A stretch of 64,000 bases of DNA, from assembly GCA_964016885.1 (NCBI GenBank), contig OZ024754.1, forward strand, positions 15,376,001 to 15,440,000. Direction: 5' to 3'. The notes beneath the pieces are model-generated. The model worked only from the letters and a program-made list of their open reading frames with translations, did no database searches and was not told the DNA's origin. Both the position numbers and the translations under genes were made by a program. Shown here in pieces: positions 5,640-54,181 of this stretch (position 1 is its first letter; the number at the start of each line of letters is the position of its first letter). This DNA comes from Eledone cirrhosa. Taxonomy: Eukaryota.

Positions 5640-6796
5640 CAATAATGTTTTGAACAGTTCTTTGATTCTTATATTTCATATAACTGCTCTGTAAATCATC
5701 TGATGTTTTTACATTGAGCTACTTAACTTACTGGTAATAAGGTAGTAATACATTACTGCCTACCACTATTTAGGGTGTGTGTAAAATACTTACAACTGCT
5801 TAAGGTTTTGTATTTACATAACCATAAATAGTATAACTAATACTATATATATATATATATATATATATATATATATATATATATATATATATATATGTGT
5901 ATGTGTGTGTATGTATATGTATATATTTGTTTGTGTATATATATATATATGTATATATATATACATATATATATATATATATATATATATGTTTGTATAT
6001 ATATATATATATAAATATATTTATATATGTGTGTGTGTTTTTATGTGTGTATATGTGTATGTGTATGTGTGTTTATGGTTGCGCGCGAGTGTGTGAGTGA
6101 GTGTGTTTTTTTGTGAATATGTCTGTTGATTTTTGGCATATAGTTGATTAGTTTAAGAGAAGTTCGAAGTTAATTGTAAGATATGCACTCAGTATTTTGA
6201 ATCTGTCTACAGAATTCTCTAAACCTTTGTCACTTAGTAGAACCTTAATGAATTTAGCTTTTAAAGAATCTCCCTTTCCTTTAATTCTATCTACCATGAC
6301 TGACCCCCCACTGATCTTATAGATATCTGTTAGCTTAAGAGAAACTATATATATATAGATTTTTTTCTTTTTTTAAATGCATATAATGTTACCTTTCTAC
6401 ACCAACGTTTGCAAATTTCTGTCTTATATGTTTATACACTAGATATGGCTTTCTATAATAATAGTACTAAACACTGTTTTTCTGGACCCCTTTAGAAATA
6501 ACCTGCTACTATAATAGCCCTAATAACTTGTCTGTGACACTGTACTACTTTGACCCCTCTAACTAAATTTTGTCCGAACAACACCACTAGAAGAATCTAC
6601 TTCCCAGCCAACCTTAGCACGCCTCATTAAGCTAACTGCTGCCAAAACATTCTCTCTTCACAATCTCTACTAGTCTGACAGTCTTAAACCCTAAGACTCC
6701 CTCCACCTTACTCACTTCCCTCTTCCCCTTCTCTTCCTACCTCCTTCTTTATCTTTTATCTAGTGTATAAAATATTTTCATATCATTCTAATACAA

Positions 6797-6913
6797 AGGT
6801 CTGATGACATGGTGTGTTGGCTTACAGTGTACTTTCGGTTTTTGATAATATTTGTGTATTATTCAAGTAGCGAGGTATAGGTAACTCATACACTATAGAA
6901 ACAATTGTTACCT
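6797..6913 (+). ncRNA. Type I hammerhead ribozyme with ~90-nt stem II (family C)
   Basis: AGGT-CTGATGA-(cATGGTGTG...TACACTATa)-GAAA-CAATTG-TT^-ACCT. Confidence 0.65.
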
Positions 6914-7004
6914 AATAAATTCTATATACCCGCATTTCCATTTCGTAAACTTTTTCTCCATATATATATATATATATATGGAGAAAAAATGTATATATAT
7001 ATAT

Positions 7005-7522
7005 GGCCACCTGTGGCTTGTATGTTAACTTGACCACTCACCCCAGTCTGTACCATGATTCGGTCTTGTTAAATGTTTAATTTCTATTACCAACCCACCT
7101 AAAAAATTTCCCTACTATATATCTGTTGAATTACTTTTTTTTATTTATTTATTTTTTATTTATTTTATTTATTTATTCATTTATCTATTTATTTATTCAT
7201 TTATTTATTTATTTACTTATTTATTTATTTCAAAAAGCACTCTGGCTAATTGACCACTCCCCCAAGAAAAAACGGCCTGTGCCATGAAGTGGTCCTATTT
7301 ATCTAAATACCCCCCCCCCCCAATCCACCACCCCTCCCTTACCACTACCTAAATGTATAAATACCAGAACTTAATATGACACCCAGCTTCCTGAAGATTT
7401 CATCTGAATGAAACAGTACTAGTCCTGTAGAAGCTCCTTCTATAAAATAAAAAAATTTTACTCTGCCATGTATTGAGTACCTTATTTACTGTGGTTATCC
7501 CCGACTCAACCCGGGACCTACG
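7005..7522 (+). mobile_element. PLE pseudo-LTR family A, long arm with 3' tail
   Basis: Inverted partner of 970-1413 plus ~75-nt tail ending at (TA)n. Confidence 0.8.
7385..7435 (+). ncRNA. Type I hammerhead ribozyme (family A)
   Basis: AGCTTC CTGAAGA TTTCATCTGAAT GAAA CAGTACTAGTCCTG TA GAAGCT. Confidence 0.85.
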
Positions 7523-7525
7523 TAT

Positions 7526-50293: not shown

Positions 50294-51058
50294 GTGTTCA
50301 GTCCTATATTTTTAAAACTAATAGATAAACACTTCCCTATATCACATATATATCATAAAATCCTCAATAGAAAAACTATAAAACTCTCATACTCTACGGC
50401 TGCAAATATAGAATCCCACATACGCAAGATCAACCACAGAAATACCTCTAGGGAAACCGCCCCAACTATGCGCAACATAGCACCAAATTCTAAACATAAA
50501 CACATCATAGTATCACAACCGCAAACGCATACGAGCGCGCCGCAGCAAAACCTCAACTGGCACGAATCACAACCCACTTATAGCAGTGTACAAAACAGCA
50601 GTGTGGAAGCTGCACGGAATAACACCTCAAACTGCAATTGTCACTTACCTGATAGGTGCCCATTGGCGAACAGGTGCCTTGATTCGAGCCTAGTGTACAT
50701 GTGTACGGTGAACTCGGGCAACTCCACTAGGCATTACATTGGATCCACCACGGGTACTTTTAAAAAAAGATGGTATGTTCACAGACATTCGATGAAGAAC
50801 CGTGCACTAATAGGTTCTACAACCCTCACCAAAAAAATCTGGAAACTTAAGGACAAAAACATCAACTACAATATCAACTGGTCGAGGTTGTCGGCCGCAA
50901 GGGCATATAGTACCGGTATGTCCTATTGTAGGCTCTGCAACCTTGAATTACTATATATCCTTAGGAAGGATAAAAGGCTACTCAACAACAAGATAAAAAG
51001 GTCAATTTTCTGCAGACACAGGATCGCTACTAAATTCACAAGATTTAAGCCACCGTGA
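50294..51058 (+). CDS. PLE linker and GIY-YIG endonuclease (5'-truncated)
   Basis: FLKLIDKHFP, TIKLSYST, CNC..CPLANRCL, LVY..YIGST..FKKR, CRLCNLE, CRH. Confidence 0.9.
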   Translation: MFSPIFLKLIDKHFPISHIYHKILNRKTIKLSYSTAANIESHIRKINHRNTSRETAPTMRNIAPNSKHKHIIVSQPQTHTSAPQQNLNWHESQPTYSSVQNSSVEAARNNTSNCNCHLPDRCPLANRCLDSSLVYMCTVNSGNSTRHYIGSTTGTFKKRWYVHRHSMKNRALIGSTTLTKKIWKLKDKNINYNINWSRLSAARAYSTGMSYCRLCNLELLYILRKDKRLLNNKIKRSIFCRHRIATKFTRFKPP

Positions 51059-52291
51059 TTCGAACCAACATAACTTAGCATTCAACATATGAAATCCGCA
51101 CTCTCACACAGACCACCACAGAACTATAATATTCTTTAAGCAGCTTCTAGTCTCCTTAATTCTATACCCCAGTAATGTCTGCAAATATCTTATCAACCCA
51201 GAAATATATCTCTTCTCAGCTGCTGTCAACACAACCTCATCACTCTTGATTCTCAACAGAAGAATTTAACTCCAAGTACATTATTTGACTGCTACCACAG
51301 TCCTTGAAATATCACCTTCCTCCTGTTGTTATAATGAACACCCCAATGTATCCGTAATTGTAGTCATCATATTCTCTCTTCCTTCCTTCACCTCTGTATT
51401 AACTTACCTACTATATTGCTGTTATTATTATTTGGCAGTATCGGTAGAGGGTCGGACGCCATGCTTTCCAGCATAGTTACGTCCCTTTATGATCTGAGTT
51501 CAAATCCCGCCGAGGTTGACTTTGCCTTTCATCCTTACGGGGTCGATAAAATAAAGTACCAGTAATGCACTGGGTAATTGCTGGCCTTGTGCCTAAAGTA
51601 GAAACAATTATTATTATTGTTGTCTTATCCATGCATGATTTGTTATTGATGCTGTGAAAGCTAAACAACCCCATGATTCGAACTAACAATCCCTTCATCT
51701 AATATAGACCACTTAAATAATTGTTTCTATTTTCGGCACAAGGCCAGCAATTACCCAGTGCATTACTGGTACTTTATTTTATCGACCCCGTAAGGATGAA
51801 AGACAAAGTCAACCTCGGCGGGATTTGAACTCAGATCGTAAAGGGACGTAACTATGCTGGAAAGCATGGCGTCCGACCCTCTACTGATACTGCCAATCCA
51901 CTGAATCCGCTTTACACCACATAAAAATTACCATCCTCACTACAATGACAATATTTTATCTGTCAGATAATAAATAATTCTTACGGTCAGCAAACCTACA
52001 GTAAAGTAAATCGTCCACTGTTTCAAGCCCCAGGTTATCTCTACACGATATATAATACACCCTATGACAGCTTTTACATGTCAATTTCATACATCTGCTT
52101 CGTATCAGTTCGTTTTACATGTTAAAGTCATCAGTATACGCTATGTCTTACTTAGATTGATGTTGTGATTATTTTAACTATTTACGGTCTAGCTAATTTA
52201 TTCGAGTACTGCTAGTATTGTTATTATTGTTCTGATTTAATGCCACTACTATATATAGAAGCCATGCCTGTGTATTTCCTTCATTCTCGCA

Positions 52292-52403
52292 TGCTCTGAT
52301 GAATAGACAGACTGGTTATAACAAAGTATTGGTGATCGATTGACGCAAAAACAGGCGGGTAGCGATCTCTAGACCTACCAGTTCAGAGAAATAATTGTCA
52401 GCA
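52292..52403 (+). ncRNA. Hammerhead ribozyme with long stem II (family G)
   Basis: TGCT-CTGATGA-(~85 nt)-GAAA-TAATTG-TC^-AGCA. Confidence 0.65.
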
Positions 52404-54181
52404 ATGTCAATAAAGCCCTTATTGTATAGCAAACCGTGTCACTCTTCTTTCTTGATTTATTATTACTCCAAGTGTAAACTACATAGAAATCACCGCGTAC
52501 TCGCAACATCACTATGGAAACGTCTTGTTGAGTCAAACTTAGCCAAGCTAATACTATCCACTACTCGGAGTACTCTAACTGGACTACATCTAAGTGGACT
52601 ACCTATAACAATAATTTGTTATCCCGTATATATGTATATATATACATATATATATATATATATATATATATAGAGAGAGAGAGAGAGAGAGAGAAAGATA
52701 TATATATATATATATATGTATATATATATATATATATATATATATATATATATATATATATATATATATATATATATATATATATATGTATATATATATG
52801 TATATATATATATATATATATATATATATATATATATATATATGTATATATATATATATGTATATATATATATATATATATATATATGTATATATATATA
52901 TATGTATATATATATATGTATATATATATATATATATATATATATATATATATATATATATATATATATATATATATATATATATATATATATATATATA
53001 TATATATATGTATATATATATGTATATATATATATATATATATATATATATATATATATATATATATATATATATATATATATATATATATATATATATA
53101 CATATATATATATATATATATATATATATATATATATAGAGAGAGAGAGAGAGAGAGAGAAAGAGCAGACAGAGTGGGAGAGAGAGGGAGGGAGAGAAAG
53201 AAAGAGAGTGAGAGTGAGAGAGAATGATTTGAAAGAGACTTCGCTGCTGCATTTTCTAGCAAGTTGAGCCTCTGAGTAGAGAAGCATTCTTATTGGCTTC
53301 ATGACGAGAGACCTGATAAATGGTAGATCGATATTTGAGTTATAAATAGAAATACATGTGCCAGCCGGTCACTCTTCAATGCAATAGACAGGTGTTTTTT
53401 GAAAGCGTAATTTACAAAATTTCCGAATCTCTTAATGGACTGTTGAAGAGATTTCTCATTCTTGTTTTTTTTTTGTTCTTGTTTTTCCTTTTAGATCATC
53501 TATTTTTTTTTAGTTTTCTTATGTTTTTGCTGTACGTTGTTGACTAGGTTTCATGAGTGTAATATGTAGAGTTTGGAACTACTGTAGTTTGTAAGAGAAT
53601 GTTACCTTCAAATATTCTCAAACACACACACACACACACACACACACACACACACACACACACACACACACACACACACACACACACACACACACACACA
53701 CACACACACACGTTCACACAGAGTCACATGTACATATACAAATGAAATATATCAAACAGAGACACACAGCATAGAATTATATATACTGTCATGAAAATGT
53801 GTGTATAATCTAATTAATGTACATGAGCAATGTATGTATAATGTGTATATATATATATATATATATATATATATATATATATATATATAATCAATAAAAA
53901 CGGTAAAGTGAAACCTCGCTCTGTCTTCAATATTTATATGGGTATATAGGCATATAAATATATATATAAATATATATATAAATATATATATATATATATA
54001 TATATATATATATATATATGTGTATATACATATATATATTTATACAGATCTCTCTTTATATATATATATACACGTATATATATATATATACATATAATAT
54101 ACATATATATACATGTATATATATACATATATATACATATATATATATACATGTATATATATACATATATATACATATACA

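Follow-up and report, generated by a model that had tools for sequence, protein, structure and literature searches.

Since the tail of Penelope-like elements (PLEs) was first noticed, the question has stood how these elements choose two internal start sites and why a tail is found at one end only; the sole in vitro study has dealt with one element. The question is raised again by a (TA)n-rich stretch of 64,000 nt from Eledone cirrhosa, positions 15376001-15440000 of contig C14 in a host genome of 3.0 Gb (G000). This whole stretch is referred to as the window, and coordinates without a locus name are window positions. Eleven hairpins had been noted in it as features of PLE 3' tails (the original prediction). 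Ten of the eleven proved to be copies of one bulged-hairpin motif within the pseudo-long terminal repeats (pseudo-LTRs) of PLEs, and this is a real, apparently undescribed RNA motif of the ends of Hydra-clade elements. Judged from where the element ends fall, the hairpins probably are sites at which the reverse transcriptase (RT) of these elements docks on the RNA, and so fix two internal positions where it starts.

The motif consensus is 5'-N-N-U-C-Y, a variable stem-loop, and R-U-N-G-A-N-N-3', in which the Y-R pair below the bulge and the invariant first bulge U are part of the motif. The eleven regions were unalignable; pairwise blastn gave a single 18-nt match, between families A and H (E=0.011). 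All eleven strings were present where they had been described. The site outside the motif, V, is not a tail hairpin and is taken up with the individual sites below.

The motif was then sought outside this genome. An alignment of 42 proteins led to 77 metagenome loci, in 38 of which a descriptor of the hammerhead ribozyme (HHR) recognized 44 ribozymes; the 33 with enough downstream sequence represented 24 unalignable families. The motif was found 20-75 nt 3' of the HHR in 18 of the 24 families, against 0.95 expected, and was found in none on the antisense strand and in none upstream. A strict second copy was present in 10 of the 18 positive families, usually 55-83 nt downstream. Six published Hydra consensi were inspected by eye (PMC8557442; this source, PMC11167929 and PMC6189040 are cited here for parts of their content). 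The motif was seen in three, of coral and sea cucumber, namely Hydra-2_Amil, Hydra-2_Ajap and Hydra-1_Ajap (twice); Hydra-1_Crog was partial, Hydra-1_Amil doubtful and Hydra-1_Obim negative. Among viral contigs, 378 candidate stretches yielded no relatives.

Pairing was scored with the arms anchored by the basal sequence only. In the hairpins from other organisms upper pairs 1-3 were Watson-Crick in 30/32, 22/29 and 19/22 cases (shuffled means 17.5, 9.0 and 6.7), and the first bulge base, which lies outside the anchor, was U in 32/32. The pair directly before the bulge was Watson-Crick in 30/32 of these and in 28 of 30 hand-picked hairpins of this genome; in the table of the latter the loop lengths of H and n18 are unreliable because the 5' arm was placed too early, and the pair counts are unaffected. 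Basal pair 1 in the 30 hairpins was G-C in 16, A-U in 9, U-A in 1 and mismatched in the rest, while pairs 2-4 were C-G 28/U-A 2, U-A 29/A-U 1 and C-G 28/U-G 2. Outer-pair covariation, as originally described, was thus seen mostly in this genome; elsewhere the basal stem is nearly fixed, with G-C at pair 1 in 27/32 hairpins, and the strongest covariation lies in the upper pairs. Families H and 36494 carry A-U at pair 1 of hairpin 1 and G-C in hairpin 2, and family R has the reverse. This opposite order suggests at least two separate switches, as read from the sequences. Hairpin 2 of family A, in a full-length 5' end (L285), is GCAC/GUGC, in which the U-A pair, elsewhere invariant, has undergone a compensatory flip.

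Tail-less element ends were found to stop at hairpin 1. In all ten true families the tail-less copy meets (TA)n just before the hairpin. Junctions were counted if they lay at -25 to +3 from hairpin 1, and 130 of 147, from 20 families, fell at -10 to -3 (hand tally; V and n1 excluded). Hairpin 1 of family n1 (UUUC/GAAA) was dropped as it was not conserved in the V subfamily. The window and 167 loci, 1.54 Mb in all, were also searched, blind to structure, for inverted pairs that face outward and meet (TA)n at one of their ends, and 130 pairs resulted. Of 52 clusters, which include the window families and of which many are not PLEs, 18 had the motif start no more than 20 nt from the short end, against 3.87 expected; the controls gave 6 upstream, 3-4 at offsets and 4 antisense. 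When the window families were removed the count was 9/43 (3.46 expected).

The motif had been described as a feature of the 3' tail, a description that has to be widened: full-length elements have two copies, the second beyond the tailed end, and tailed ends lie some 5-10 nt before hairpin 2. The order of parts is HHR, AU-rich stretch, hairpin 1, 55-170 nt, AU-rich stretch, hairpin 2 and start codon. Since tail-less ends precede hairpin 1 and tailed ends precede hairpin 2, the tail (about 60-170 nt in this genome) is the stretch between the hairpins. Measured against hairpin 2 in read-through copies, the tailed end stood at -6 in 46/59 copies of family H, at -7 in 26/32 of family A, at -6 in 28/37 of family n3 and at -9 to -1 in 4/4 of family 36494; families n7 and n15 gave 2/2 each. 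For family B the position was predicted in writing beforehand, and the tailed ends fell at -8 from hairpin 2 of the full-length copy L368 in 4/4 cases. Tailed ends of family R also precede hairpin 2, with more noise. The L050 row of this table was discarded, as the query contained a microsatellite. The second copy in the metagenome families predicts tailed ends just 5' of hairpin 2; of seven second copies in metagenome contigs, six end 1-5 nt short of a hairpin.

Raw DNA reads were examined for family H only (L268), in two reduced-representation libraries and for the best-supported rows; the read counts are not copy numbers. Loose ends in (TA)n were found at 2611 (2733 and 2365 reads in the two libraries) and at 2691 (8106 and 8769 reads); the hairpins start at 2617 and 2695. 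The junctions are thus 5 and 3 nt before the hairpins, and each finishes on a TAT common to the target. Read depth dropped from thousands to tens beyond 2694. Contigs of a second organism have these two end positions as well.

With its position fixed relative to both element ends, the motif seems best read as a conserved cis-recognition module for the PLE protein, as had been proposed. The RT-endonuclease protein would bind the 5'-R-U-N-G-A-3'/5'-U-C-Y-3' bulge on a transcript reading through the pseudo-LTR (tandem or circular RNA) and nick (TA)n DNA, and the primer would pair with a triplet resembling UAU that lies 5-10 nt away on the 5' side of the stem. Synthesis of complementary DNA (cDNA) would proceed away from the hairpin, which would leave the docking hairpin uncopied. 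A start before hairpin 1 would give a tail-less end and a start before hairpin 2 a tailed end; both starts on opposite target strands would produce an inverted insertion with a single tail.

Further steps are more speculative. As in HIV TAR and 7SK, the bulge might form a U·A-U triple and hold an arginine; the conserved RxR that precedes the WFNPP motif might supply it, and a protein dimer might engage both hairpins. An arginine-rich stretch does follow the thumb region (R461 95% and R463 100% conserved in the 42 proteins); a role in hairpin binding is a guess, and the stretch could also be a nuclear localisation signal. More tentatively, the two hairpins may form a ruler by analogy with arginine sandwiches: a dimer would grip both, the UAU would be aligned with the nicked (TA)n, and the spacing would set the tail. 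We hold this to be possible, at somewhat less than even chances; if true, it would amount to a telomerase-like anchor-and-align RNA common to corals, echinoderms and this animal.

In 7SK the pair before the A of the triple is G-C. The third arginine sandwich motif (ASM3) of 7SK has a 2-nt bulge, U40 U41, and the triple U40·A43-U66, and in TAR the pair before the A involves G26 (Pham et al. 2018, PMC6189040). Shared with TAR and with ASM3 of 7SK stem-loop 1 (PMC6189040) are a paired purine below the bulge, a bulge U, a free base, a pair and then an A-U pair. Here, in contrast, the bulge is on the 3' strand and the variable loop on the other side. The likeness would be convergent, and both triple and arginine contact are proposed only. 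The A-U pair two steps past the bulge is present in 18/24 outside families, where it is part of the search rule, and is flipped in hairpin 2 of family A.

The hairpins might instead act at the DNA level, where a folded cDNA or an extruded genomic hairpin would guide a cut by the GIY-YIG endonuclease (EN) in a longer intermediate, a few bases upstream, and resolution would make both ends. End positions alone fit priming or cutting, and the AU-rich stretch is similar to the sequence that the EN targets. Craig et al. (2021, PMC8557442) attribute the tail to EN-mediated resolution, and the EN of the D. virilis Penelope element is reported to have depended on the tail for recognition of plasmid DNA (Frangieh et al. 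2024, PMC11167929). We nevertheless regard a DNA-level action as unlikely. On the sense strand G-U outnumber A-C pairs 10 to 3, and the inner lengths between the arms vary from 4 to 65 nt; both favour a single RNA strand, as G-U pairs would be mismatches on the cDNA strand. In addition, both tail ends of PAc, a Poseidon element of Anolis, were mapped in vitro as RT start sites (PMC11167929). Initiation on PAc was internal, RNA on the 3' side of the start was required to a distance of about 55 nt, and the protein was predicted to dimerise (PMC11167929).

Docking at the start sites was also weighed against a role of the hairpins in ribonucleoprotein assembly, cis-preference or control of open reading frame (ORF) translation, the ends being set only by pairing of the AU-rich stretches with (TA)n. 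Hairpin 2 usually lies 34-60 nt 5' of the first ATG, and a TAT triplet stands at -10 to -3 of the hairpin in 24/32 cases (6/32 and 7/32 in control windows), as such a role would have it. The triplet is absent at 8/32 hairpins, however; hairpin 1 is just as well conserved at its large distance from the ATG; and the untranslated region (UTR) holds many other TA-rich stretches, yet the ends cluster before the hairpins. We therefore think this role quite improbable.

The elements that carry the motif were assigned by their proteins. The window holds at least five PLE ORF fragments, and all five have the C-terminal GIY-YIG pattern, a CxCX5C linker and CxxC and CxH motifs around conserved E and N; RWR and DKT were found in 4/4 full-length 5' ends of this genome (families H, A, n3 and B). 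The Hydra clade was defined by GIY-YIG, CxCX5C, CxxC/CxH and N-terminal RWK and DKT (Craig et al. 2021, PMC8557442), and on these sequence features the linked ORFs belong to it. Insertion into (TA)n was seen as well. Searches of the PLE ORFs against Pfam matched no family at E<=0.001; a weak GIY-YIG match was returned for 1/4 (E=0.005). Of 488 protein homologs at E<=1e-20, the best 120 were 37-53% identical and were unnamed or hypothetical. A Hydra ORF was linked in multiple copies to families A, B, F, G and H and in a single copy to 46937; none was linked to E, R, J, 36494 or V.

The motif was also sought outside this clade. With four 8-mers from the 3' arm as probes, the consensi of Naiad and Chlamys showed 17 scattered matches, of which none was seen to lie in a hairpin, and the Hydra file, though much smaller, showed 4, each of them in a hairpin (line breaks can hide matches). 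One Neptune-type family of this genome had the motif in 0/6 copies; in a second family one copy had a single match. In limited tests the motif thus appears, on sequence, to be Hydra-specific, and these tests gave no support to the wider, all-PLE scope once suggested. In the first Neptune-type family (L386-L393) the descriptor did not find an HHR, and several copies end in a short TA run followed by a stretch of about 35 nt with a different hairpin.

An accessory function for the HHR or for RNA circularisation is very unlikely. Hairpin 1 does follow the HHR at 29-64 nt in other organisms, but among 31 HHR clusters of this genome several were without the motif, one of them in 0/32 copies and with no PLE ORF link (an abundant short repeat, L034:4378 and 31 others). 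Hairpin 2 is further off, the HHR of family R is about 300 nt away, and the end positions would be left unexplained. Two head-to-tail arrays, at L050:2300-5000 (units of about 470 nt) and L117:8900-9900 (311-nt units), have an HHR in each unit and no motif; they are retrozyme-like or satellite.

Several points weigh against docking as proposed, or lower the force of the counts. The strict motif was missed by 6 of the 24 outside families (four through a change at a single pair or in the bulge; of the other two, one is a tail-less end and one is without the motif), one positive family, L245, resembles chance, and the motif rule and search window were fixed after earlier results had been seen. 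In this genome the outer pair is mismatched in 4/30 hairpins. Fifteen of 17 ORFs of this genome form one lineage in a tree of the sequences retrieved here, and with shared ancestry of the families the shuffle p-values overstate independence. Tail-less ends of family A are spread from -21 to -1. Hairpin 2 of the same family, without a pair below the bulge, breaks the triple but still marks a sharp end; this speaks against a strict requirement for the triple. PAc starts lie inside an AC-rich stem-loop within the ORF, whereas here the ends are 5' of two motif copies in the 5' UTR (PMC11167929). Folds are weak in several families: z-scores of the ten true sites ran from -2.2 to +0.1, the bulged fold, or nearly so, was the minimum-energy fold in only about 4/10, and pairing probability was below 0.1 in 5/32 hairpins from other organisms (median 0.83). 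In the shuffle and random-position check proposed with the original prediction, the loose motif was no commoner in the window (167) than in five shuffles (190-224), so the hairpin by itself is not significant; the enrichment was specific to the side of the element end, and position, rather than the motif itself, holds the signal.

That shuffle count, and site V as one such pick, are what can be said for chance hairpins chosen by eye in AT-rich repeats, a reading refuted, unless the outside sequences are far less independent than unalignable UTRs imply, by 18/24 families against 0.95 with none antisense, by the covarying upper pairs and by the fixed distance to both ends, and one to which we give next to no credence.

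Model-based searches were also made. A covariance model (R1) built from seven equal-length hairpins of other organisms gave 91 matches at E<=5 in the 77 metagenome loci. In the window its 18 matches were weak, the best at E 0.08, and included H, A, n7 and R hairpin 2, so R1 is no evidence by itself. The R1 alignment was 99% paired with 14 double changes (0/500 shuffles), values that are biased to the model and include redundant rows. MAFFT applied to 31 hairpins left the 5' arms unaligned. Among the 150 Rfam matches listed of 169, none was at or near the gathering score; they were sub-threshold microRNA models, mostly over AT-rich repeats. A splice-site reading was rejected, as the GAGC and GAAC arms offer no GT donor, and a selenocysteine insertion sequence was ruled out by eye.

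The PLE tail, the HHR, the Hydra clade and a stem-loop at the RT start of one element were already known. Like PAc, the present elements have two alternative ends, an optional tail on one side of an inverted insertion, and a stem-loop at the start sites, which here are proposed ones; for PAc, sequence 3' of the start was needed in vitro. The PAc tail is 30-40 bp, against about 55-170 nt here (PMC11167929). Inspection by eye of the PAc letters in Fig. S1 did not reveal the motif, and the parts of that paper available hold no mention of 'Hydra' and describe no cross-family motif (PMC11167929). The elements of Craig et al. (2021, PMC8557442) agree with those described here in protein motifs and (TA)n targeting and, where the descriptor matched (in or beside 8/10 true families), in a canonical HHR; the main text of that paper differs in being without 'stem-loop' or 'hairpin' and in ascribing the tail to EN resolution. 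The same motif was not found in the available parts of PMC11167929, PMC8557442 and PMC4209133, and in those of PMC7864049 the search terms matched in the reference list only. Within that scope the presumption that nothing of the kind had been described held for this motif, with the published stem-loop of the one Poseidon element (PMC11167929) to be set beside it. A duplicated, clade-wide motif before both ends was not found in Rfam or in the literature searched, a search mostly outside subscription papers.

Other RTs use related devices. In long interspersed elements (LINEs) such as R2 and L2/UnaL2 a 3' stem-loop recruits the RT, and in telomerase the RNA alignment region pairs with a repeat DNA primer. 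LINE stem-loops are 5' of the start and are copied, whereas the Hydra-clade hairpins are 3' of the start and would be left uncopied in the proposed model; telomerase stops at a boundary element, whereas PLEs copy the whole RNA. Because telomerase and the PLE RTs are sister groups, an RNA anchor next to a short alignment register would bear on telomerase origins. The presence of the motif twice, at a fixed distance from both ends, in distant animals supplies targets for mutagenesis and an end-prediction rule for repeat annotation, and a portable signal of about 20 nt that sets an internal RT start could serve RT-based genome writing.

The individual sites were as follows. Hairpin 1 of family B lies at 5686-5719 (+) (GCUC/GAGC, six upper pairs, UU bulge), with the tail at 5683-5843 and the HHR at 5593-5639. 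An inverted tail-less copy at 2463-2835 (-) ends 4 nt before hairpin 1 and extends the UTR of the family B ORF fragment at 3906-5264 (-), a Hydra-clade fragment with thumb, CxCX5C linker and GIY-YIG. Family A has hairpin 1 at 7460-7478 (+) (ACUC/GAGU), its HHR at 7385-7435, a tailed end at about 7521 and an inverted tail-less copy at 970-1414 (-) whose end is 11-14 nt before hairpin 1. A high-copy element with terminal inverted repeats of about 120 nt occupies 7521-7956, in (TA)n directly after the A tail. Hairpin 1 of family E is at 8590-8625 (+) (GUUC/GAAC), and the inverted tail-less copy at 7988-8148 ends 1 nt before it. For family R, hairpin 1 is at 22965-22923 (-) (GCUC/GAGC), the tail-less partner at 24051-24204 (+) and the HHR at 23821-23905 (+); hairpin 2, at 23636-23653 (+) (ACUC/GAGU, GUAA loop) with a second copy at 23508-23491 (-), had not been noted before, nor had hairpin 1 of family n7 at 24401-24421 (+) (GCUC/GAGC, UA bulge).

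Family 36494 has hairpin 1 at 36495-36554 (+), an inverted tail-less copy at 36189-36265, an HHR at 36246-36303 (-) and hairpin 2 in the read-through copy L126. Family 46937 has hairpin 1 at 46937-46976 (+), an HHR at 46826-46880 and an inverted tail-less copy at 46515-46684; the Hydra-clade EN fragment at 44648-45622 (+) is tied to it by proximity in one copy. Hairpin 1 of family J lies at 48596-48620 (+) after a variant HHR at 48454-48543, with a second copy at 13761-13737 (-) and a tail-less copy at 13906-14062. Hairpin 1 of family H is at 49066-49089 (+), with more copies starting at 10985 (-) and 58977 (-). The ORF fragment at 60210-61631 (-), a Hydra-clade RT-EN, is of the same family and has near-identical copies elsewhere in the genome with open frames of 788-819 aa. 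The hairpin of family G was present as noted, but its 3' arm needed correction: hairpin 1 is at 52465-52533 (+), with a second copy at 8979-9047, and the arm ending at 52533 is kept in 9/9 copies, while that at 52571 is degenerate in most others. A Hydra-clade EN fragment lies upstream of G at 50270-51055 (+). In family F hairpin 1 is at 44012-43993 (-), a decayed copy, with the HHR at 44062-44127 (-); the hairpin family is real, and the GGGT arm is a mutation of the window copy, as 11 other copies (of 12) read TT/TC-GAGT. The Hydra-clade RT-EN fragment at 29646-30914 (-) lies upstream of an F-type HHR at 28323-28388 (-).

An HHR had been expected 5' of each hairpin. The descriptor matched upstream of A, B, F, J and 46937 (5/11) and, counting the partner copies of R and 36494 and a relative of E, in or beside 8/10 true families; in G, where stem II is long, and in H, where the core is non-canonical, the HHR was recognized by eye only, and V had none on its strand. 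The family H ribozyme (L268:2500-2600) appears by eye to have U3-A8 in place of C3-G8, which we take to be a hammerhead variant. The core of B has C at position 4, and that of J has two changes. Two more motif-like hairpins are present at 16557-16585 and 27169-27202, and no HHR was found upstream of them.

Site V, 32517-32543 (-), sits inside a non-autonomous element of about 500 nt (32165-32670). The element has inverted arms of 63 nt, a tail of 49-60 nt and a GAAA-capped hairpin, and its HHR core is without stem I. The tail-less end of this element is at about 32670 on the + strand, so that V as noted is antisense, internal and about 125 nt upstream of that end; it folds better on the + strand, where the GAAA-capped hairpin forms (z -3.3 against -2.2). 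The supposed covariant GGTC/GACC rested on V and is to be dropped. An element of the same type at L053:4269-4450 has a motif-like hairpin after the tailed end (junction at -8 in 11/14) and no ORF downstream.

Other repeats were noted in the window. A dispersed repeat of about 190 nt, similar to short interspersed elements, has some 10 copies (13180-13380, 20400-20780, 26660-26856, 40770-40957, 51430-51900 and 58060-58390), and a tandem array of about 36 copies of a 29-nt unit occupies 41429-42482. Decayed LINE-like ORF fragments with endonuclease- or RT-like words, as judged by eye, lie at 33571-34212 and 38379-39101, the second with a weak PHD-finger match.

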